Assembly (NCBI GenBank): GCA_964609675.1
Contig: CAZSRX010000021.1
Span: forward strand, 373 to 64,372
DNA: 64,000 bases
Direction of reading: 5' to 3'
From: an uncultured Bacteroidota bacterium
GTDB taxonomy: Bacteria; CLD3; SB21; JBBIRG01
A model generated the notes under the pieces. That model searched no databases and was not told the DNA's origin. It saw only the letters and a list, made by a program, of their open reading frames with translations. Both the position numbers and the translations under genes were made by a program. This document shows positions 1 through 9,280 of this stretch, piece after piece. The stretch's first letter is position 1. Each line of letters opens with the position of its first letter.

Positions 1-1753
1 TAGCCAGCCATTTTGTGTTCAGTTTAGGCGTCAGCGTAAAACGGAAAAACTTGCATTCCTCCACATTTTTTGTACCAGGCGCGTTTGCAGTAATTTCCAG
101 TTCAAAACAATCTTCCCTTTTAATCGGCATTCCCTCAGGTTCATTAATGGCGCCTGGTCTGAAATATAATTCGATTGTCGTTTTTTCTCCAGGGGCAATA
201 TTGGTGAATGACGGATCATCAGATAATCCGTAGATGTTGTCTCCTTTTGAAATATACATACCTGTCCTGAACAACTCGTCTTTAAACTGATTTCCTGTAG
301 TGTTGTGCCTGAGCCTGAAACAGCCTGATATTTTCTTCGGAAAAATCCTGTTACACCTGTTATGAATATCAAATTCTATCCGGTATTCTGTTTCTTCGTC
401 CCATTCGTAGGCTGGAATTTTTTCAGGAAACCCAACTATTTTCTGCAAATCCTGGTTACTATGGATAATCTCAAGAGAAACGGATGGCTTATATAAAAAG
501 AAAACAACCAGGTAAAGAAACAATAATATTCCTGCAATGATTATGGCCCATATCCACCACGGCATTCCGGGGGGCGGTTCAAAATTCAGTATGGCGTCCC
601 TCTCTGCGGACTGCACGGAGTAATAAAATGTGCCCTTCCAGTATGAATTCGGATTATAAACCATGTCAAATTTAAGAACCAAACCGACGCTCAGGTCCTC
701 TCCCCTGAAAATTGATGAAGAGATGTCGAACGGAGAAATGCTGTACATATTAGGATGGCCCTGAACCGGACGGAAATCAATGTCATAATTTGCTTCTGTT
801 CCCTTGTTCCTTAAATGAAAGGAAATGACCTTTTTCTGAATGTTATCCGGGTTGACGGGTTTCTGCCTGTTCTTTTCGCTGACATACATGCTGAAACTGA
901 AAGGATTCATCTTAAAAACAGACTGCTCCTGGTCCAGGGAAAGACTTTTCCTCTCGATTTCTATCACAGGTACATCCAAAAGGCGCAATACCGATACTTT
1001 AACAAGCATGGGATTAGCCGGATAAATGGGACGTTGTATGACAATTTCATAAACCGGTTCAAGCAGGAAGTTATTGTTGAAAAACTTCACCACTTCATTT
1101 TCGATATAATCAACTTTATTCCTGCTGTTGTCCCGGACAGCCAGTCGGTCGTTAAGCCCGATGCCTCCATCGCCGGAAACAAAGTCGCTGACCTGTATAA
1201 CAATTACCGTATCTGCGGATATTCTCTTATCCGAAAGATATGCGAGTGAAAAAGGGTATACATACCGTATCATCTGAAAATCATATTCCGGAAGTGATTG
1301 AATCCCTTTTAATATATCTGGAATCTCGTCGGCATTTTTTGCTTCCTGAGAGTGACGGAATACCGTATTTGAAAGACTGACAATGAAATCCGGGGAGGAT
1401 TTAGCTTTTGACTCACACAGCTGTATATCCTGTCCATTAATGCCGTGGGTCAGGAAATCCAGGCGGTCGTTCTTTTCTCTGTGATATAACGGCAGGTAAA
1501 GCTTAAAATGATCCATTACGTCCCGGTCTATACGGGCATTCTGGCTGATTTTTAATTCGGAGGATGTAAGCAATTGAATCAGGATGTCGTTAACTTCTCT
1601 ACGCATTTTACGGTCATGAGGCTGAAACTGGTTCCCGGATGAACCGGAAAGGTCATACAGGACAATAATATGCCGGTGAACCTGCTGAATCGGAGTTTGG
1701 GCCTGTAAAGCGCAAACTATGAAAGCGAATATAAGCAAAATGGCTTTCTTCAT
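1..1753 (-). CDS. vWA (von Willebrand factor A) domain protein with N-terminal signal peptide and C-proximal TM helix; start is complete at 1753, 3' end runs off the window
   Basis: Manual translation from the ATG at 1753 gives MKKAILLIFAFIVCALQAQTPIQQVHRHIIVLYDLSGSSGNQF..., i.e. a signal peptide followed by a DxSxS MIDAS motif. A later IQVSDFVSGDGG stretch is vWA-like, and a hydrophobic helix WWIWAIIIAGILLFLYLVVFFLY lies near residues 410-435. The frame is open to position 1. It is absent from the ORF track because there is no stop codon inside the window. Low GC. Confidence 0.6.
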   Translation of the reverse strand, partial: MKKAILLIFAFIVCALQAQTPIQQVHRHIIVLYDLSGSSGNQFQPHDRKMRREVNDILIQLLTSSELKISQNARIDRDVMDHFKLYLPLYHREKNDRLDFLTHGINGQDIQLCESKAKSSPDFIVSLSNTVFRHSQEAKNADEIPDILKGIQSLPEYDFQMIRYVYPFSLAYLSDKRISADTVIVIQVSDFVSGDGGIGLNDRLAVRDNSRNKVDYIENEVVKFFNNNFLLEPVYEIVIQRPIYPANPMLVKVSVLRLLDVPVIEIERKSLSLDQEQSVFKMNPFSFSMYVSEKNRQKPVNPDNIQKKVISFHLRNKGTEANYDIDFRPVQGHPNMYSISPFDISSSIFRGEDLSVGLVLKFDMVYNPNSYWKGTFYYSVQSAERDAILNFEPPPGMPWWIWAIIIAGILLFLYLVVFFLYKPSVSLEIIHSNQDLQKIVGFPEKIPAYEWDEETEYRIEFDIHNRCNRIFPKKISGCFRLRHNTTGNQFKDELFRTGMYISKGDNIYGLSDDPSFTNIAPGEKTTIELYFRPGAINEPEGMPIKREDCFELEITANAPGTKNVEECKFFRFTLTPKLNTKWLA

Positions 1754-1768
1754 TTTAACCTCCGGATT

Positions 1769-2416
1769 TTATCCTACTTTAATTCTTCCGATGGACTGTA
1801 TGGACCATTTATCCCCGTTTTTTCTGCAAAGGGCTGGTTTGATGAGTTGGGTGATTCTCAGGTCATTCTGACTTGACGCTACATCGACTTCAAATGATTT
1901 CTTAAAAACAAATGATGTGTTCTGATCGTAAGGAATGGCCCGTGTCGGCGCCAGCCAGTACAAGTCGTCCCACTGGAACAGAACAAAATAACCGGAAGCA
2001 TCGGCTTCAATCACGGGCTCTGAATCCTGACCGATTTCAGTGTGAAAAGCATCTAATTTAAGCGACACTTTTTTCGCGTCATGGTCAGTAATCCATTTTT
2101 TCAATTTTTCCCGGTCAGAGAGGCTTTGATTGAAAAGCTGAATAACCGAACTGATGTTTTTTTCTTTTTTTCCTTCAGTTTCCGGCAAAATGATTTCCGC
2201 TTTCTGCGCGGGAGATTTCTCATTGTCCGCAAACTTGCGTAATGCGGTTTTTAGTCGGTCTATATCCTCTTCTATCCCGGATAACCGGTCCTGAAAATCG
2301 TTTATTTTGCGGAATAATTGTCTTACTGATTTCCGCATTGAATAAAAAAGCCAGATAAACAAGATAATCATCACCGCATACGCGATAATGGCGATCAGCA
2401 TATTCGTAGTCAGCAT
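1769..2416 (-). CDS. hypothetical membrane-anchored protein: N-terminal TM helix, then a coiled-coil-like charged segment and a C-terminal globular part
   Basis: 215-aa ORF with hydrophobic N-terminus LIAIIAYAVMIILFIWLFY followed by a heptad-like charged region (RLSGIEEDIDRLKTALRKF). 15-nt gap to the downstream gene and 21-nt gap to the upstream gene, same strand. Confidence 0.5.
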   Translation of the reverse strand: MLTTNMLIAIIAYAVMIILFIWLFYSMRKSVRQLFRKINDFQDRLSGIEEDIDRLKTALRKFADNEKSPAQKAEIILPETEGKKEKNISSVIQLFNQSLSDREKLKKWITDHDAKKVSLKLDAFHTEIGQDSEPVIEADASGYFVLFQWDDLYWLAPTRAIPYDQNTSFVFKKSFEVDVASSQNDLRITQLIKPALCRKNGDKWSIQSIGRIKVG

Positions 2417-2437
2417 GGAGGCCCGCTTGTATAGGAT

Positions 2438-5400
2438 TTATGAAAAGGTTTTTCGGTCTTCTTGCATCTTTTTAATTAACGCCCTGGCGCCGATGATAAA
2501 CGGGGACTCCAGCACAATGTCGCTTTCTTTTCCCCTGAAAGCTCCCTGGATGGCGCTAAATACAACATTACGGTCAAATTTCAGAGGGTATATCAGCAAA
2601 TCATCACAGAAATTCAGGAATTCATGTTTGGCCATACCCAATTCGCAAAGTTCATTAAGAAGTTCAAATTTGGATAGGGTAGGATTTATCATATGGGCTT
2701 TATCGAGTAATATATAGTCGTTACGTGCTAGTTCATCCTTGTCCAGCAGGATTCCCGTTTCACCTACAATAACTGCTTTTGAATCTTTTTTAGTTATTTT
2801 AGAGACGGAGAATCCTTCCCTGATTTCATTGCCTATCTCGTTCTTCTGGTCCTTTGTGGATGAGATAGACTTCAGAAATTTGTTGTCTTCATGAATCAAT
2901 AGACCGCGGCATACTTCCTCTTTGGGTTCATCCGAAAGGCATATCGTTATTTGATCGGAACGGAGTTCTTCCCTGTATCCGATAGCGAAAGCCCCCCTGC
3001 CAAGTTTTTCATATACCTTACTGATATCCGGATACAGAAGCTTAAGTAGTTTGGAAGCATTGCCCCCGATGTGAACAGTTACGTTGCTAATTGCCGGATC
3101 CTGTTTGTAAAATAACTGGCCTAAAAAATAAAACATCGAAGCAAAACCCCAGAAGATGACGGAACGGCCGTACTTAACGGGCTCATCCTCCAGATTACCC
3201 GTAAAATAGGAAACAACATTTTCCCCTTTTTGGCTCATAATGTTGTTAATGATTGATCCGTTGTAAATACTGGAATTGGCGAACATATTCTGGATGCGCG
3301 CTGTCTTTACCTTACGCTCGGCCTCATTAGATCCGAAATTGGCGATGCTTACTATTTTTTTCATGAAAACATCAGATTTGCTGAACAAATCTTCAAACAG
3401 CAGAACACCGCCCATTCTGAATGAGAGGTTTTCTTTTATATAATTGCTTCCCTTTTTGCTGTCCCAAATAACCAGGTCTGTCGTTCCGCCCCCGATATCA
3501 ACGGAGACAAAATATTTACCGTTACCGGTTCCTACAATATCATCTTCCCTTTTTTCGGTACAGTACAAGGCGGTTGCGATTCCCTCATCGATGTCTATCT
3601 GTTTATCGTCAATATTTCTGAAATAACTGGTTTTGATATCAACACCGGTCGTTTCATAAACCGATTTTGCTGATTTTTCCCAGGTTGACTTGAAAATCGT
3701 TATCCGGTTTTTTTCAAAAGATAAGGGATAGCTCCATAAAATATGTACCTGCGACTTCTTCAGGTTATATTTAACATGATAAGCTATAAGCAGCATCAAC
3801 TGGGTGATGAACATATCGACCAACGGCATCATTTTCGGATCGGTTGTCCATTTAATCTGTGTGCGGATCTGCGAGGAAAACATTTTAGCGACATCGTCTT
3901 CCATTTTTTCAATATTCTGGAAAGGAATCATGCCATGAATAAACGAAATTCTCTGATTAGCGGCTTCTTTTTTGTAAAGTAAAGCCGTTGTTATCGGAAA
4001 TATGAAAGAATCCGATATGAAATTAGTTGACCGTAATACATTCGCATAAGGCGTGTTGTTGTTAAATACTTCCAGAGGCTTCAGATCATTGATTTCCATC
4101 CGTTTTTTGACCAACTGGCCGTCCAGTAAAAATACATTTGTATTGGAAGTGCCGAAATCGATGCTGACCTCAACAGATGTATTTTCTGTCCTTTCCGCGT
4201 TCGGAGCCTCTATCGCGAATATCCCGAGCGGCTCGCCTTCTCCCTGCAGGGCTTCTTTTTTTCCGTCAGGCAAATCCCTGACCGGAACGGATTGCAGTTC
4301 AATAATGGATGGAAACGATTTCAGACAGTAAACGGACAATTTATCCTCTACTCTGCTGGCAACAACATCAGGTTCATCTTTCATAGAGAAGACCTGAAGC
4401 CGTACATTTGTCTGTATATCTTCCGAATGTGAAAAGAGGCAATAATACCGGTTCCATGCAGGATCATTATATCTCGGCCAGATATCCAGCAGAGGTATAT
4501 TGTCATACTCAATAATATCTTTCGCGTAAAAATCTTTATGCAACGAATAACCGGCACCGCTTTTGTTCAGCTGAATGCGTACTTTAAACCGGTTCCCTGA
4601 ACTGCCCGGATCTTCCAGTTCTTCAATGAAACATTTATCATAATCAATCTCGTATCCCTTTTCTTTCAGGAAACGAAGCCTGACAGGAAAAGTGAATACG
4701 GGTTCCGTCCTGCCGCTTTTCCATTTAAGAGGTTTGATATATTGCGTGTTTATATTTTGGAGCTTGATTAATTTTTCGACAAATACCTGTTTTATGTCTA
4801 TGGGTAATTTGGCTTTTCTGGCGAATGTTGAGTAAAAGGAATTTTCACTTATATTGTTGTAGATAGAAAAAACAGCAGGAGATGCATGAGCAATAATTTT
4901 CTTCTCAATTTCTGCTTTCCATTTTTCTAAAAGCGAACATATTTCATGTCTTTTGTACTCTTTATTATCTGCCGGTTGAAATTGTTTAATTCGGGTTATG
5001 GTTTCATTAATCCAGTTATTTAAGATTGAAAGCATTGTTTCATCGACAGCAAATTTCGGGCATTTTAAAGGATCGGTAAATTTGAATTTTTGTGTTTCTT
5101 CGTTCTTAATGACCCAGGTAAAAGTGTCTGACGGGGCAGGTGCAGCATAGTCAGCCCCCGTAAAAACTAATGTTAAGGGCGAAAAACCGCCAAGAACTCT
5201 TTTCTTTCCTCCGGCAATATGCTTTATTAAATAAAACTCCTCTTCAGGCCAGTATTGATCATTAGGTTTCAGTTTTTTTACTATTCCTGTAAATCCGTCA
5301 TTCGCTAACTTTACTTTTATTATTTCAATTTTTATATCCAATATATCGCTGAAACATAATAATGCCAGAAGTCCTCTCCATTCATCCGTCACAAACTCAT

Positions 5401-5677
5401 GAGCAGGATGCTTAAACCCTTTATTATCCTTCTCAATTGCAAAATACAAAGCCTTATAGAATAGGTATGGACGAGCCCAGACTGTGGGTATTGAGGAAAT
5501 CATATCCGGGGTTTTATCCGTATCATGGATCATGATATCTCTTCCAAGGTTTTCGAGTTGGGAATCTCGGAAACCAACCCACTTACCGGGCTCGGGACTG
5601 TACTGCATACTATTGTTAACACAGACCACTTCCGGTAAAAAGGCTTTAGTCCCTGTCGGTTTTTCATTGTTTGGCAT
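2438..5677 (-). CDS. large (1079 aa) protein with an internal Hsp70/actin-fold (ASKHA) ATPase core
   Basis: Phosphate-1-like motif SIDFGTSNTNVF (compare Hsp70 IDLGTTNS) near residue 505 and phosphate-2-like motif VSVDIGGGTTDLVIWD (compare Hsp70 DLGGGTFD) near residue 735. About 500 aa of N-terminal and 180 aa of C-terminal sequence are unassigned. No signal peptide. Low GC. Confidence 0.6.
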   Translation of the reverse strand: MPNNEKPTGTKAFLPEVVCVNNSMQYSPEPGKWVGFRDSQLENLGRDIMIHDTDKTPDMISSIPTVWARPYLFYKALYFAIEKDNKGFKHPAHEFVTDEWRGLLALLCFSDILDIKIEIIKVKLANDGFTGIVKKLKPNDQYWPEEEFYLIKHIAGGKKRVLGGFSPLTLVFTGADYAAPAPSDTFTWVIKNEETQKFKFTDPLKCPKFAVDETMLSILNNWINETITRIKQFQPADNKEYKRHEICSLLEKWKAEIEKKIIAHASPAVFSIYNNISENSFYSTFARKAKLPIDIKQVFVEKLIKLQNINTQYIKPLKWKSGRTEPVFTFPVRLRFLKEKGYEIDYDKCFIEELEDPGSSGNRFKVRIQLNKSGAGYSLHKDFYAKDIIEYDNIPLLDIWPRYNDPAWNRYYCLFSHSEDIQTNVRLQVFSMKDEPDVVASRVEDKLSVYCLKSFPSIIELQSVPVRDLPDGKKEALQGEGEPLGIFAIEAPNAERTENTSVEVSIDFGTSNTNVFLLDGQLVKKRMEINDLKPLEVFNNNTPYANVLRSTNFISDSFIFPITTALLYKKEAANQRISFIHGMIPFQNIEKMEDDVAKMFSSQIRTQIKWTTDPKMMPLVDMFITQLMLLIAYHVKYNLKKSQVHILWSYPLSFEKNRITIFKSTWEKSAKSVYETTGVDIKTSYFRNIDDKQIDIDEGIATALYCTEKREDDIVGTGNGKYFVSVDIGGGTTDLVIWDSKKGSNYIKENLSFRMGGVLLFEDLFSKSDVFMKKIVSIANFGSNEAERKVKTARIQNMFANSSIYNGSIINNIMSQKGENVVSYFTGNLEDEPVKYGRSVIFWGFASMFYFLGQLFYKQDPAISNVTVHIGGNASKLLKLLYPDISKVYEKLGRGAFAIGYREELRSDQITICLSDEPKEEVCRGLLIHEDNKFLKSISSTKDQKNEIGNEIREGFSVSKITKKDSKAVIVGETGILLDKDELARNDYILLDKAHMINPTLSKFELLNELCELGMAKHEFLNFCDDLLIYPLKFDRNVVFSAIQGAFRGKESDIVLESPFIIGARALIKKMQEDRKTFS

Positions 5678-5696
5678 ATATTTTCTCCGGTATTAA

Positions 5697-7202
5697 CTAA
5701 TTGATGTTATAAACTTTCTGAACAAAATTATAGCTTGCCTGATAGAAAATATTCACTAATTTGGCGGAAGCAGAAGAAAGGCCGCTTTCCACTTTGACTT
5801 TTTTCAGGCATTCAATAAATTTTGTATAATCAGGAGTCAAACCACTCTCATTGAAAAGTACGGATGAAAAATCAGATTCCACATTGCGGCGTGTGTTGAT
5901 AAGTCTGACTACGGGATTGTCAAACCGATGGGTATCCCTCAGCCATTCAAAAAAGGAATAATGTCCTTCCCTCTGGAAAAAATCTCTAACGATAGCCAAA
6001 TATTGTTTTTCCCTGTCAGCTGTTAAATCATCATTTTTCTTGAAGAAATCCCTGATAACTTTCATTTCACCGGGAAATTGAGTAAACTGATTAGTGTTCT
6101 TGTAAAAATAGAGATAGACAGTTCCCATAATAGCTGCTGTCGCCATTTTTATCTTTATTTCGTCCCTTTCAAAGGAGTTTGACGGCATATCGTTCCAGGT
6201 CACCTCATTATTATTTTCACGCCCGCAATAACAATATTCTATTTTGGATTCGCTTCTTTTAGGTAGCGGCTGAGTGTCTTTAAAAAAAGCCATAGCGGAT
6301 AAGGCGGCAATTATTTCAATATAGTGAGGATGATTTGTCTGGCTTTCCCCTCCCACCGCAAATTTTCCAAGTGCCGTATCTTTAATGCTTTTTTCACCAA
6401 GTACATAAATTCTGTTATAAACACCCTTGATAAAAATATCATAATTCATCAGCGCGGCCTTAGTGCTGGAAATAAAATTTTCACTCTTCACAAATAAGCC
6501 GTCAATTTTCTTATCGGGCGTTGAAAAAGTGAAATAAGGCAGCATAATCATACCGCCGATGTAAATATTTTCTCTGTTTTCTGTAATATCAAGGATAAGT
6601 TTGGGTAAATTCGGGAATCCTGCCGCTCCGGTGCCTCCAAAGATGGAACCGCAGATAAATATTCTGATATCTGATGCTTTATTCTCCTTTATCAGTCTCA
6701 TAGTCTGGCCGATAGGGCTCTGTAAAACTTCAGGTTCGGCATTATCATAATCGTTAAAAATTTTAGAGCTTGCCATAACCACAGACCCAATCGCGGGATG
6801 ACCCCGGAAGCCCTGGTTGAGCTTAGTGCATCTCTCATCTTCGGTCAAAAGCAGATTACATAAATCCTGTTCGTCTTCAGACAGCATGTTATATTTTATG
6901 AGATCATGGAGGGATTCATCCCTTTTAACAGGCGACCAGTGCCAGTTGTACTCCTGGTGCTCATCGATTGGACCTTTTATAATAGGAGAGAAAAAAGGGA
7001 CATTCCCATAACCCATACCCCTGCACTTCTGATATAAATTCAGCAGTTTCATGGTCCTGCCAAGATTACCGTTGCCTTTATCCGGGTCAATGAGTAAAAC
7101 GTGCGTCTCATCAGCGCCCAATCCGCAGGCAGATAGATACGCAAAGGCTTCTGTCATTTGAATGCCTCGGCCGCCTATTCCGATCAATATATTGATAGCC
7201 AT
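5697..7202 (-). CDS. tubulin/FtsZ-superfamily GTPase-like protein
   Basis: N-terminal NILIGIGGRGIQ resembles the FtsZ T1 glycine loop (GxGGGGxN). GSIFGGTGAAGFP resembles the tubulin/FtsZ T4 signature GGGTG[ST]G. MNYDIF is a possible T7-like NxDxx element. 501 aa, no signal peptide or TM helix. Low GC. Confidence 0.55.
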   Translation of the reverse strand: MAINILIGIGGRGIQMTEAFAYLSACGLGADETHVLLIDPDKGNGNLGRTMKLLNLYQKCRGMGYGNVPFFSPIIKGPIDEHQEYNWHWSPVKRDESLHDLIKYNMLSEDEQDLCNLLLTEDERCTKLNQGFRGHPAIGSVVMASSKIFNDYDNAEPEVLQSPIGQTMRLIKENKASDIRIFICGSIFGGTGAAGFPNLPKLILDITENRENIYIGGMIMLPYFTFSTPDKKIDGLFVKSENFISSTKAALMNYDIFIKGVYNRIYVLGEKSIKDTALGKFAVGGESQTNHPHYIEIIAALSAMAFFKDTQPLPKRSESKIEYCYCGRENNNEVTWNDMPSNSFERDEIKIKMATAAIMGTVYLYFYKNTNQFTQFPGEMKVIRDFFKKNDDLTADREKQYLAIVRDFFQREGHYSFFEWLRDTHRFDNPVVRLINTRRNVESDFSSVLFNESGLTPDYTKFIECLKKVKVESGLSSASAKLVNIFYQASYNFVQKVYNIN

Positions 7203-7233
7203 AAATAAATGCTCCCTTTATTTATATTAATTT

Positions 7234-7722
7234 CTATCCGATATGTACTTTGCAGGGTATCCTAAGCCAGGGAATTACTTTTGTTGTAAAAGAAGGTCGA
7301 AAGATATGTGACAGTGACCAATAAAGCAAAATATATTCAATTAAGGCTGTATATATCGCATAAAAAGTATTCGGCAGCGTTAATAAAGCCTCAAAACCCA
7401 GGTACTCCTCTATAGCAGGATAAGAATGAGTTGGTAAACTTAAACAACGCAGTAAGACTATAACAGCTATCAATACAATACCAATCAACAAAAAAAGAAA
7501 CCAGCCCTTCAGCGGACGATAAGCCTCCGTTATATCTCTTGGTACTAATTTCTTTTTTACGACATAATACATTACTAGGATAGTGATGATTGCAATAAAA
7601 ATTACTATCAAAAAATTATCAGTCAGAAATTCGGACCATTTCTGGGCGGTATAGTTCATGGGCTGTTTCCCGATACCTATCAACTGCAAGAGTTTATGCA
7701 ACATATCTTTAACTCCTTTCAA
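7234..7722 (-). CDS. small integral membrane protein (2-3 predicted TM helices)
   Basis: 162-aa ORF with hydrophobic segments FLIVIFIAIITILVMYYVV, WFLFLLIGIVLIAVIVLL and AIYTALIEYILLYW. 2-nt gap to the upstream vWA gene. Confidence 0.5.
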   Translation of the reverse strand: MKGVKDMLHKLLQLIGIGKQPMNYTAQKWSEFLTDNFLIVIFIAIITILVMYYVVKKKLVPRDITEAYRPLKGWFLFLLIGIVLIAVIVLLRCLSLPTHSYPAIEEYLGFEALLTLPNTFYAIYTALIEYILLYWSLSHIFRPSFTTKVIPWLRIPCKVHIG

Positions 7723-7724
7723 TA

Positions 7725-8972
7725 TTAATAAATCGCAAGATAAAACCGACCTATGATTTGCGGGTTAATTTCAGCAGACAAAACAAGCAGTTTTTTTGTG
7801 AAATCATATAAATAAGGCGTTTTCGATCCCGGATTTTTCGCGTTATCGGTTGACCATTCTTTTATCCATTCAGGGTATACAACAGTGGGGCTGAATGATG
7901 CCTCACAGTAAAAAGCATACCAGAGTTTTTTCATGATCGGAGCGAGTTGCAGTTTTATCTGTGTTTCAAATTCACCATTTTCATTTATCCTGAATGCTTC
8001 AACCGATTTGATTTTTACAAGCTTGTCTTCTTTTTCTGCCGGTCTGTCAGATTTTATTATTTTTTTTAGAACATTAAGAGATACGTTACAAATCTGGGAA
8101 TCTGTGTTTGTCGTATAAAAAATCTGATAATCTTTAATAAACTTTCCTTTAACCGATACATTCAGATAACCAGTGCTTTGCCCTTCAAATTCAATGATTT
8201 TATAATTCTTAACTCCGGTTTCAGCCGGAACCGTCAATAACGATGAGCTTTCTTTATCGACTTTCAAGACAACTTCCGATTTCTCAACCGCCTCAGAACC
8301 GGAGACAAACAGATATTCGGTTTTCAGGCCGGGAATTGTTCTGGCATCCTCTGTGATGATGTTCACCAGTTTCTGACTATGTGATCGATGGCCGAAAACA
8401 AACATGTAAAATTGCTGGGTTTTTGTCTGAAAACCCAGCAGATAAAAATCATTCTTACTTAGTATCCATTTTGATATTTCCTCAACGACACCCAGTATAT
8501 CTGGTTTAAAATCGATCAAAGGAATGCCGTCGGTTATAATTATATTGATGGAACTGGTATTCAGAGTATCCCCGACAAAGAGGCGCATCACTTTCTTGAT
8601 ATCAGTATCCCCCCTATATTTTACAGGATTTTCTATTTCATCGATCAGGCGGTCATCGGATAAATTCTGTATATCAGCATCAAAACTATGGTATCTTCTT
8701 TGGCATTTGACATAGGATGTTTTAAGAGTCAGCGCGAATTTTGTCATCAAGCTGATATACATTTTATCCCGGGCATAACTGACCATAGAACCTGAACGGT
8801 CAAAATATATGCTTATATCTTCAAGTTCTTTCACAGCCACTGAATTTTTATCAAAAATTTCTTGAACAGTTTTCCATTCCGGAGGATCATCTTTGCATGA
8901 GTTAAAAAAGAAACCGGTCATCATCAAAAATATCACGAAATATTTTATTACTACCTTTTTTGTATTAATCAT
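7725..8972 (-). CDS. vWA domain lipoprotein (first gene of the low-GC operon)
   Basis: Lipoprotein-like N-terminus MINTKKVVIKYFVIFLMMTGFFFNSC (lipobox FNSC). Complete MIDAS triad: DRSGS (DxSxS), GDTDI (T) and IIITDG (D). RBS GGAGAAAGG lies 3 nt upstream. Confidence 0.65.
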   Translation of the reverse strand: MINTKKVVIKYFVIFLMMTGFFFNSCKDDPPEWKTVQEIFDKNSVAVKELEDISIYFDRSGSMVSYARDKMYISLMTKFALTLKTSYVKCQRRYHSFDADIQNLSDDRLIDEIENPVKYRGDTDIKKVMRLFVGDTLNTSSINIIITDGIPLIDFKPDILGVVEEISKWILSKNDFYLLGFQTKTQQFYMFVFGHRSHSQKLVNIITEDARTIPGLKTEYLFVSGSEAVEKSEVVLKVDKESSSLLTVPAETGVKNYKIIEFEGQSTGYLNVSVKGKFIKDYQIFYTTNTDSQICNVSLNVLKKIIKSDRPAEKEDKLVKIKSVEAFRINENGEFETQIKLQLAPIMKKLWYAFYCEASFSPTVVYPEWIKEWSTDNAKNPGSKTPYLYDFTKKLLVLSAEINPQIIGRFYLAIY

Positions 8973-8975
8973 TTA

Positions 8976-8984
8976 CCTTTCTCC
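8976..8984 (-). promoter_or_regulatory. Shine-Dalgarno (GGAGAAAGG) for the vWA lipoprotein gene; the AT-rich 8985-9280 region upstream presumably carries the operon promoter
   Basis: The reverse complement of 8973-8984 reads GGAGAAAGGTAA immediately before the ATG at 8972. Upstream DNA is more than 75% AT with no convincing ORF. Confidence 0.4.
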
Positions 8985-9280
8985 AACAAGATTAAATTTT
9001 CATTAAAAATATTTATTAAAAAAAACCTCTTGATTTTGATATAAAGACATTATTTGATGATTTATATTTAGATATGACTCAATATGCAAAAAAAGAACCC
9101 TTTTTAAATAAAGGCCCCTCTAAAAATTACCTTCTTTTGACAAAAAATAAGCATAAACATTTTAATATTCAAATTATTTTACTCTTCCAACCTCTTTATT
9201 GCGTCTTAATCCGTTCTTTTAGCCGTAAAACGCATATTTTAAGAGAAAAAGCTGATCAAGTATTTCATGACCGGCTCCTA

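Follow-up and report, generated by a model that had tools for sequence, protein, structure and literature searches.

A 64,000-nucleotide stretch of DNA from an uncultured Bacteroidota bacterium (contig CAZSRX010000021.1 of GenBank assembly GCA_964609675.1; hereafter, the window) carries, at positions 5697-7202, a gene for a 501-residue protein in which an earlier note, made from the sequence alone, had recognised a divergent GTPase of the tubulin/FtsZ superfamily, standing beside partners with vWA and Hsp70 folds. Is this protein a tubulin homologue at all and, if so, which process does it serve? The predicted structure shows a genuine, very divergent tubulin/FtsZ-fold protein with a tubulin-type Rossmann GTPase domain. 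What is new here is a distinct variant, of about 500 residues, of the FtsZl1/Tubulin_2 group, with a characteristic partner of the actin/Hsp70 (ASKHA) fold; the general theme was published in 2010 (Makarova & Koonin, PMC2875224) and in 2020 (Kaur, Burroughs, Iyer & Aravind, PMC7159879).

A divergent tubulin-type domain and an unusual C-terminus

The gene lies on the minus strand, where the interval forms an unbroken, ATG-started open reading frame; the plus-strand reading is riddled with stops. The T1-like glycine loop and the T4-like tubulin signature of the earlier note were found at residues 7-15 (IGIGGRGIQ) and 189-195 (GGTGAAG), respectively, and when the window was scanned end to end in six frames for GG[GT]G[STA][GA], the GGTGAAG of this protein was the single site. 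Both motifs show no or next to no variation in two sets of homologues, of 46 and 244 sequences, and are therefore not chance resemblances; across the 244 relatives, the set to which the conservation values below refer, GIGGRG and GGTGAAG reach 97-100%. In a model computed with AlphaFold2 (AF2), the T1-like loop sits between strand 3-9 and helix 10-25, and the acidic motif DPDKGNGN, which we assign to T2 by its position, comes after strand 32-38. A third motif, GFRGHPAIG, resembles the T3 motif of Escherichia coli FtsZ, GAGANPEVG. The T4 signature is itself a variant, with Ala-Ala replacing the Ser/Thr-Gly of GGGTG[ST]G, and its segment was aligned with the core of the Pfam models PF13809 (Tubulin_2) and PF00091 (Tubulin). 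Conservation of 91-100% covers T1, D39-x-D41, N44-G45, the G131-G139 and S186-P197 motifs and the post-S5 PYF motif, and further positions at G269, G284, Q288-x-N290, E296 and F306 (Table 1). Such conservation speaks for a functional nucleotide pocket. The spacing of T1 and T4, by contrast, is not that of FtsZ, as had been thought: at about 180 residues it is about twice the distance in E. coli FtsZ, which is about 87 residues (T4 placed by an hhalign alignment). The extra length comes from insertions specific to the family, around residues 77-130 and 140-178.

The earlier note had proposed PF00091 for a profile match; this model remains sub-threshold (14.5 bits, cut-off 33), whereas the related PF13809 passes (29.1 bits, gathering score 27), over residues 165-226 only and profile positions 148-210 of 356. 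Among the 46 relatives, 42 match PF13809 and seven match PF00091 at E<0.01 (best, 4e-5). A search of all PDB chains with the protein, or with its 46-sequence profile, gave no relevant sequence match, and an hhalign comparison of the family with E. coli FtsZ aligned the T4 segment alone, to GGGTGTG, and was not significant. The AF2 model, built from 46 homologues, is confident (pLDDT 86.5, pTM 0.91), and all of the 50 Foldseek matches listed for it are tubulin, TubZ or FtsZ; identity to the structures of CetZ, FtsZ, archaeal and eukaryotic tubulins and TubZ/PhuZ is 9-16%. The Rossmann-like N-terminal nucleotide-binding domain of the model matches tubulin/FtsZ better than other Rossmann folds. 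Both PF13809 and the model thus bear out membership of the superfamily. That the glycine motifs come instead from a Rossmann dinucleotide-binding dehydrogenase, or that the protein is a paralogue of division FtsZ with no separate tubulin-like family behind it, is scarcely credible, as the Foldseek matches listed are all to tubulin, FtsZ or TubZ and those in Pfam to Tubulin_2 and Tubulin only, no dehydrogenase catalytic motif is conserved, and the hallmarks of an FtsZ paralogue (FtsZ_C domain, C-terminal peptide, division-cluster context) are missing. The cell-division FtsZ itself was also considered and rejected, in keeping with the divergence that the earlier note had stressed: neither FtsZ_C, nor the C-terminal peptide, nor a division gene cluster was detected, the flanks being sucD, a pgpA-like gene and the membrane/ASKHA operon genes described below.

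In FtsZ and tubulins, the C-terminal domain and the T7 loop put a catalytic Asp or Glu into the neighbouring subunit, completing its active site. Here, conservation collapses past residue 310, with only W336, P340 and W420 standing out, and residues 346-498 are all-helical in the AF2 model and match no Pfam family, in agreement with the absence of an FtsZ C-terminal tail noted earlier. The T7 acidic residue for which the earlier note had proposed to look was not found: beyond residue 305, the alignment of 244 relatives has no conserved acidic position, and entropy is highest in 311-501. Because the region after residue 346 is modelled as all-helical and no acidic residue is conserved, the canonical alpha/beta C-terminal domain and T7 loop have, as the model shows them, been lost, and a variable helical domain stands instead. 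The same absence was remarked for FtsZl1 by Makarova and Koonin (PMC2875224).

Relation to FtsZl1 and extent of the family

PF13809 is the Pfam model for the FtsZ-like group of Makarova and Koonin (PMC9871819), and Npun_AF098, of 1,109 residues, is a canonical FtsZl1 member listed in Additional file 5 of PMC2875224. On PF13809, Npun_AF098 scores 385 bits over the full profile and the window protein 29 bits over part of it; when the family profile was aligned by hhalign with the N-terminal 314 residues of Npun_AF098, the match had 93.2% probability (E 2.9e-7, 261 columns, 21% identity). By this significant alignment and that low, partial score, the 501-residue protein is homologous to FtsZl1 and yet clearly outside the FtsZl1 core, belonging, on these profile comparisons, to a distinct sister family of about 500 residues. 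In both families the tubulin-type GTPase domain is divergent, T1 and T4 are set apart by insertions, and neither a T6-H7-T7 region nor an FtsZ/tubulin C-terminal domain can be recognised; both occur in operons with membrane proteins, and OmpA/MotB-type neighbours are found near relatives of both. They differ in build, FtsZl1 proteins having about 900-1,200 residues with an extended coiled coil and a helical domain, whereas the present family has about 500 residues (among 2,395 clusters at 50% identity, nearly all of the best 150 have 450-560 residues) with a short helical C-terminal domain, and a long coiled coil is absent from the AF2 model of the 501-residue protein. The neighbour of FtsZl1 is an annotated vWA protein, that of the present family a lipoprotein with a MIDAS-like motif only. 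The families differ also in company: the pairing with an ASKHA protein of about 1,100 residues and a small protein with two transmembrane helices (2-TM protein), typical of the ~500-residue family, is absent from the 2010 list of partners (A1-A2, B1-B9). From CetZ, FtsZ, the tubulins and TubZ/PhuZ, the window protein is set apart by the lack of the C-terminal activation domain and T7 and by the wide T1-T4 interval. To our knowledge, FtsZl1/Tubulin_2 is the most divergent tubulin branch, and we know of no member that has been biochemically characterised or structurally solved.

Trichodesmium erythraeum IMS101 carries both the FtsZl1 protein Tery_1707 (~1,090 residues, at 2.60 Mb) and a member of the present family (~490 residues, at ~1.86 Mb; locus L028), so that the two coexist as paralogous systems in one genome. 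The 2010 list of FtsZl1 proteins includes Tery_1707; the ~490-residue Trichodesmium copy and Synechocystis are not in it. A member from Gloeothece bears the RefSeq name 'tubulin-like doman-containing protein', and the superfamily assignment is therefore already in the databases, although the ~500-residue proteins have not been described as a family before. The family is present in at least 537 species-representative genomes, its hosts being Bacteroidota, Cyanobacteria, Selenomonadaceae, Acidobacteria, Poribacteria, Ignavibacteria and Gemmatimonadota, with a few metagenome-assembled genomes (MAGs) labelled as archaeal. The archaeal-labelled members, P0022 (Thermoplasmata MAG), P0112 (Promethearchaeota MAG) and locus L090, show the same gene order with an Hsp70 downstream, and could reflect real horizontal transfer or a binning error.

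The operon and its conserved gene order

In the window, the gene for the tubulin-like protein is part of a minus-strand operon with gaps of 2-31 nt between genes (Table 1); contig L083, which matches the window without a difference over 8,900 nt, shows the genes beyond the window edge. The Hsp70-fold partner of the earlier note was confirmed, the fold and the phosphate-1 and phosphate-2 motifs of the 1,079-residue neighbour being those of the actin/Hsp70 (ASKHA) group. Conservation of this context was assessed in 80 loci, of which 60 or 71 were evaluable, depending on the feature. The tubulin-like gene is directly followed by a large ASKHA gene in 51 of 60 loci, and has one nearby in two more; the gene for the 2-TM protein lies just 5' in 60 of 71, and the lipoprotein gene is found 5' in 46 of 71, in divergent orientation in most cyanobacteria. 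The word-indexed homologue search returned only 10-14 relatives of the ASKHA partner; tblastn places the partner in most loci. The core context was found across at least six phyla, and the order lipoprotein, 2-TM protein, tubulin-like protein and ~1,100-residue ASKHA protein recurs in Bacteroidota, Cyanobacteria, Acidobacteria and Poribacteria; in locus L001 the gene order of the window is kept, with every gene homologous. As read from gene order, these counts show a family paired obligately, in genomes, with a giant actin/Hsp70-fold ATPase and membrane proteins. Exceptions to the ASKHA/2-TM/lipoprotein context are mostly Selenomonadaceae; in rumen and gut members of this group (L048, L049, L052, L053, L055, L058, L064) there is no adjacent large ASKHA gene, and other, conserved neighbours stand there, of BLAST clusters 10, 11, 14, 15, 12 and 16.

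The vWA partner of the earlier note is supported at the level of motifs only. MIDAS-like motifs are conserved in the lipoprotein family (C26, D58, S62 and D148 invariant among 30 homologues, T147 in at least 90%), but no profile method detected a vWA domain: none was significant by Pfam (30 members), by PDB profile or by phmmer, and hhalign of the family gave no significant vWA match with the integrin alpha-M I domain or with the RefSeq-annotated vWA protein Npun_AF097. At the other end of the operon, the L083 version of the 1,141-residue protein has a cytoplasmic Hsp70-type nucleotide-binding domain (PF00012, E 9e-22, residues 584-957), and the coiled coil of the 215-residue protein is suggested by sub-threshold Pfam coiled-coil matches only. 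No Walker A motif ([AG]xxxxGK[ST]) and no P-loop Pfam match was found in the seven operon proteins; the core operon proteins had no match in NCBIfam, and of the five core proteins tested against PADLOC none matched, the 215-residue protein giving a weak PbeC match only. The N-terminal half of the ASKHA partner (residues ~1-480; listed at window positions 2438-4240) contains the conserved motifs SIPDVWARP and EWRGLL, and may be the key to the partner's role. Two open reading frames, 815-1249 (+) and 4053-4331 (+), lie antisense inside operon genes and are almost certainly spurious.

The operon segment (window positions 1-9000) has a guanine plus cytosine (GC) content of 36-43%, against 47-54% in the flanks with sucD, the pgpA-like gene and other housekeeping genes, which suggests horizontal acquisition. 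At the visible island border no integrase was found, and scans for promoters, terminators and tRNA genes came back empty; the other border lies outside the window. Downstream of the core, the operons vary by lineage: most Bacteroidota have a ~510-residue Hsp70 and two proteins without an assigned family; cyanobacteria have several proteins of 300-500 residues that are paralogous to the large ASKHA protein and fall into its BLAST cluster; and Poribacteria, Acidobacteria and one metagenome locus have a MotA/ExbB-like protein, its tail a long coiled coil, followed by an OmpA/MotB protein. The latter two match ZorA and ZorB models in PADLOC (ZorA3, 7e-17; ZorA1, 9e-16; ZorB1, 9.5e-17), with a weak Pfam MotA_ExbB match. 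A membrane protein (B7) and COG1360 OmpA pair also flanks canonical FtsZl1 in the 2010 data (Additional file 5, PMC2875224).

Table 1. Features of the tubulin-like protein, its operon and related loci (window coordinates unless a locus is named)
Feature	Position	Strand	Details
Tubulin/FtsZ-superfamily (Tubulin_2-like) nucleotide-binding protein, 501 aa	5697..7202	-	GTPase-type domain ~1-310, linker 311-345, variable all-helical C-terminal domain 346-498
T1-like glycine loop, residues 8-13 GIGGRG	7164..7181	-	Family consensus GIGGTG; G10, G11, G13 99% in 244 relatives
T2-position acidic motif, residues 39-46 DPDKGNGN	7065..7088	-	D39 99%, D41 100%, N44 96%, G45 98% (244 relatives)
T3-like motif, residues 131-139 GFRGHPAIG	6786..6812	-	G131/F132/G139 100%, R133 91%, G134 97%, P136 96% (244 relatives)
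T4 tubulin-signature region, residues 186-197 SIFGGTGAAGFP	6612..6647	-	S186/F188/G189/G192/A193/G195 100%, T191 98% (244 relatives)
Post-S5 motif P222-Y223-F224, T5 position	6531..6539	-	100% in 244 relatives; after strand 213-220 (AF2 model)
Predicted lipoprotein, 415 aa	7725..8972	-	Signal peptide and invariant Cys26; MIDAS-like D58-x-S-x-S62, T147-D148 (IIITDG); beta-rich region after putative vWA-like domain
Small 2-TM protein, 162 aa from TTG or 156 aa from L083 start	7234..7722	-	Two strong hydrophobic helices (hydropathy scan)
ASKHA partner, 1,079 aa	2438..5677	-	~480-aa N-terminus, then actin/Hsp70-fold ATPase domain; phosphate-1 DFGTSNT 507-513, phosphate-2 DIGGGTTD 727-734
Bitopic protein, 215 aa	1769..2416	-	Transmembrane helix 6-24, probable coiled coil, C-terminal globular part; homologue in L001
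Ectodomain-transmembrane-Hsp70 protein, first 584 of 1,141 aa	1..1753	-	Signal peptide, DLSGS-motif ectodomain, transmembrane helix 401-419; rest outside window
700-aa protein	Beyond window (L083), after 1,141-aa gene	-	Ectodomain, transmembrane helix, coiled coil
ZorAB-like pair after tubulin-like/ASKHA core	L066:15532-18412; L089:18556-21470; also L059, L068, L075, L081

A probable role at the cell envelope and its alternatives

Because the family nearly always adjoins a giant ASKHA ATPase and membrane proteins, the tubulin-like protein probably works in a machine of the cell envelope; outputs in cell division or DNA segregation are unlikely. In the form that we favour, the protein would bind GTP on the cytoplasmic side of the inner membrane and, together with its actin/Hsp70-fold partner, would form a nucleotide-regulated assembly or switch, as opposed to a classical self-activating FtsZ filament; the assembly would be linked through membrane proteins to extracytoplasmic ligand-binding domains, and its output would most likely be a cell-envelope or cell-surface process, such as membrane remodelling or surface-appendage dynamics. 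Taken as a whole, the proposal of a nucleotide-binding tubulin/FtsZ member acting with an ASKHA partner in a nucleotide-regulated envelope or surface assembly is, in our judgement, evenly balanced between right and wrong.

The coupling of such a protein to vWA and Hsp70-fold partners, which the earlier note had called unusual, has precedents. A membrane-remodelling system made up of FtsZl1, vWA and OmpA-family proteins, kinases and a divergent GTPase was put forward in 2010, vWA partners being the hallmark of the FtsZl1 context (PMC2875224), and the FtsZl1 neighbourhood in Magnetospirillum holds two vWA proteins and a 1,626-residue Hsp70 (Additional file 5, PMC2875224). In Firmicutes and Actinobacteria, Kaur and co-authors described conflict systems that are built on a DO-GTPase and GAP1-N2 and show a tubulin-vWA or an HSP70 theme (PMC7159879). 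The window operon resembles these in having a tubulin-superfamily protein, membrane-anchored extracellular proteins of a type that is here only putatively vWA, Hsp70-fold proteins, and variable accessories round a constant core. It differs in that no Walker A motif, and hence no DO-GTPase, is present (GAP1 itself was not searched for); in that the tubulins of Kaur and co-authors are fused to coiled coils and their tubulin and HSP70 themes do not overlap, whereas here both occur in one operon; and in its hosts, the ~500-residue family being found in Bacteroidota, Cyanobacteria and other phyla.

In Synechocystis, disruption of sll0445 (Tubulin_2), sll0446 (FtsA-like) and sll0447 (DivIC-like) impairs phototaxis and the products Sll0445-Sll0447 co-fractionate with pilus-assembly proteins (PMC9880817). 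The genes sll0443-sll0449 form a seven-gene transcription unit with a putative CRP site (PMC2633013), and sll0443-0445 and sll0448 are up about 4- to 6-fold in a lexA-disrupted mutant (PMC4759255). In a verified plasmid-borne member of the family from Gloeothece, the downstream genes are likewise weakly labelled by Pfam as FtsA (a 1,118-residue protein) and DivIC (the next gene), for which reason we infer that the Synechocystis genes are probable orthologues of those in the window. The likeness lies in the order of the Pfam labels (Tubulin_2, FtsA-like actin fold, DivIC-like bitopic coiled coil) and in both units having seven genes; the differences lie in the cyanobacterial host, with type IV pilus motility, and in the downstream genes. 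An envelope or surface output fits, since these probable orthologues show a motility defect.

Several points weigh against an envelope assembly of this kind. Orthology with sll0445-0447 is probable by the order of Pfam labels, and a single proteomics-driven study is the source of the motility phenotype (PMC9880817). For the family itself, nucleotide binding is predicted from the conservation of its loops, and GTP binding, hydrolysis and polymerisation are putative in every member. The helix at residues 294-308, with E296 acidic in all of the 244 relatives, may be H7 or a degenerate T7/H8, so that a non-canonical equivalent of T7 is possible. The 415-residue lipoprotein is assigned a putative extracytoplasmic vWA-like domain at the level of motifs. 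In the ASKHA partner, the AlphaFold model from a 13-sequence alignment has a pLDDT of 59.5 and is usable for the ASKHA part only, and the N-terminal ~480 residues have no Pfam, PDB or confident structural match. To these must be added the low GC content of the operon segment, the patchy distribution across phyla, the variable downstream modules round a constant core and the ZorA-like and ZorB-like pair that follows the core in Poribacteria, Acidobacteria and metagenome loci, all of which fit a role in defence equally well.

An anti-phage or abortive-infection system is the foremost alternative, possible in our view and clearly the less probable of the two. It is modelled on the role that Kaur and co-authors suggested in 2020 for their GTPase-centric systems with tubulin, vWA and HSP70 themes (PMC7159879): extracytoplasmic vWA-like sensors, or ZorAB-like stators, would detect an invader's perturbation of the envelope and trigger nucleotide-dependent multimerisation of the tubulin and ASKHA proteins as the effector or threshold step. 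Besides the features just listed, the classing of related tubulin-vWA and HSP70 themes as conflict systems speaks for it (PMC7159879), as do a BamHI-type restriction-modification system near one relative and Prim-Pol/helicase and RmuC genes near another. These last two sightings (L089:139-3696, and L001:1-3436 with its Prim-Pol/DEAD helicase and RmuC) are anecdotal. The likeness to Zorya consists in the ZorA/ZorB matches (~1e-16) of the MotA/ExbB-like and OmpA/MotB-like pair in some relatives' loci; however, the window operon has no such pair, no equivalents of ZorC-ZorG were found, and the ZorA similarity is in part coiled-coil composition, the matches falling largely in coiled-coil regions that also match SMC-like models. 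A search of the literature returned nothing specific tying tubulin-like proteins to Zorya or to anti-phage defence. Further against defence, none of the five core proteins tested matched PADLOC, bar the weak PbeC match; the operon proteins lack Walker A and thus the DO-GTPase that defines the systems of Kaur and co-authors; nothing recognisable as a nuclease, NADase, protease or pore effector turned up; and the sole experimental phenotype of the probable orthologues is a motility defect (PMC9880817).

A cytomotive tubulin of the TubZ/PhuZ type, which would segregate or position plasmid, phage or island DNA, is very improbable. A tblastn search gave no match in 50,697 phage records, and a relative is present in only six of 72,556 plasmid records; the gene adjoins neither a TubR-like DNA-binding partner nor a repeat centromere, the neighbours being all membrane or ASKHA proteins; and the protein has neither the C-terminal domain nor the T7 loop that such filaments need. 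DNA segregation of this kind was set aside on these grounds.

Returning to the envelope assembly, a bolder version of it, which we consider doubtful, would make the tubulin-fold GTPase and one or more actin/Hsp70-fold ATPases a single membrane-bound, nucleotide-driven machine wired to extracytoplasmic sensors, which would be MIDAS-type domains and, in some lineages, ZorAB-like stators driven by protons; it would serve envelope surveillance or immunity, or be a new apparatus of surface motility. If true, it would amount to a widespread, obligate cooperation of tubulin and actin in prokaryotes outside cell division and DNA segregation, with a tubulin devoid of the canonical T7-based polymerisation switch. 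Whichever version holds, the ~500-residue family offers a tractable entry point, being compact, widespread (~2,400 clusters at 50% identity), confidently modelled and provided with a fixed set of partners. It opens the questions of whether a tubulin fold can function without T7 and the C-terminal activation domain, of what the long-predicted FtsZl1 membrane-remodelling system actually does, and of whether tubulin-like and actin-like NTPases are coupled in one bacterial machine. As the probable orthologues in Synechocystis have mutants and a motility phenotype, direct testing is feasible.

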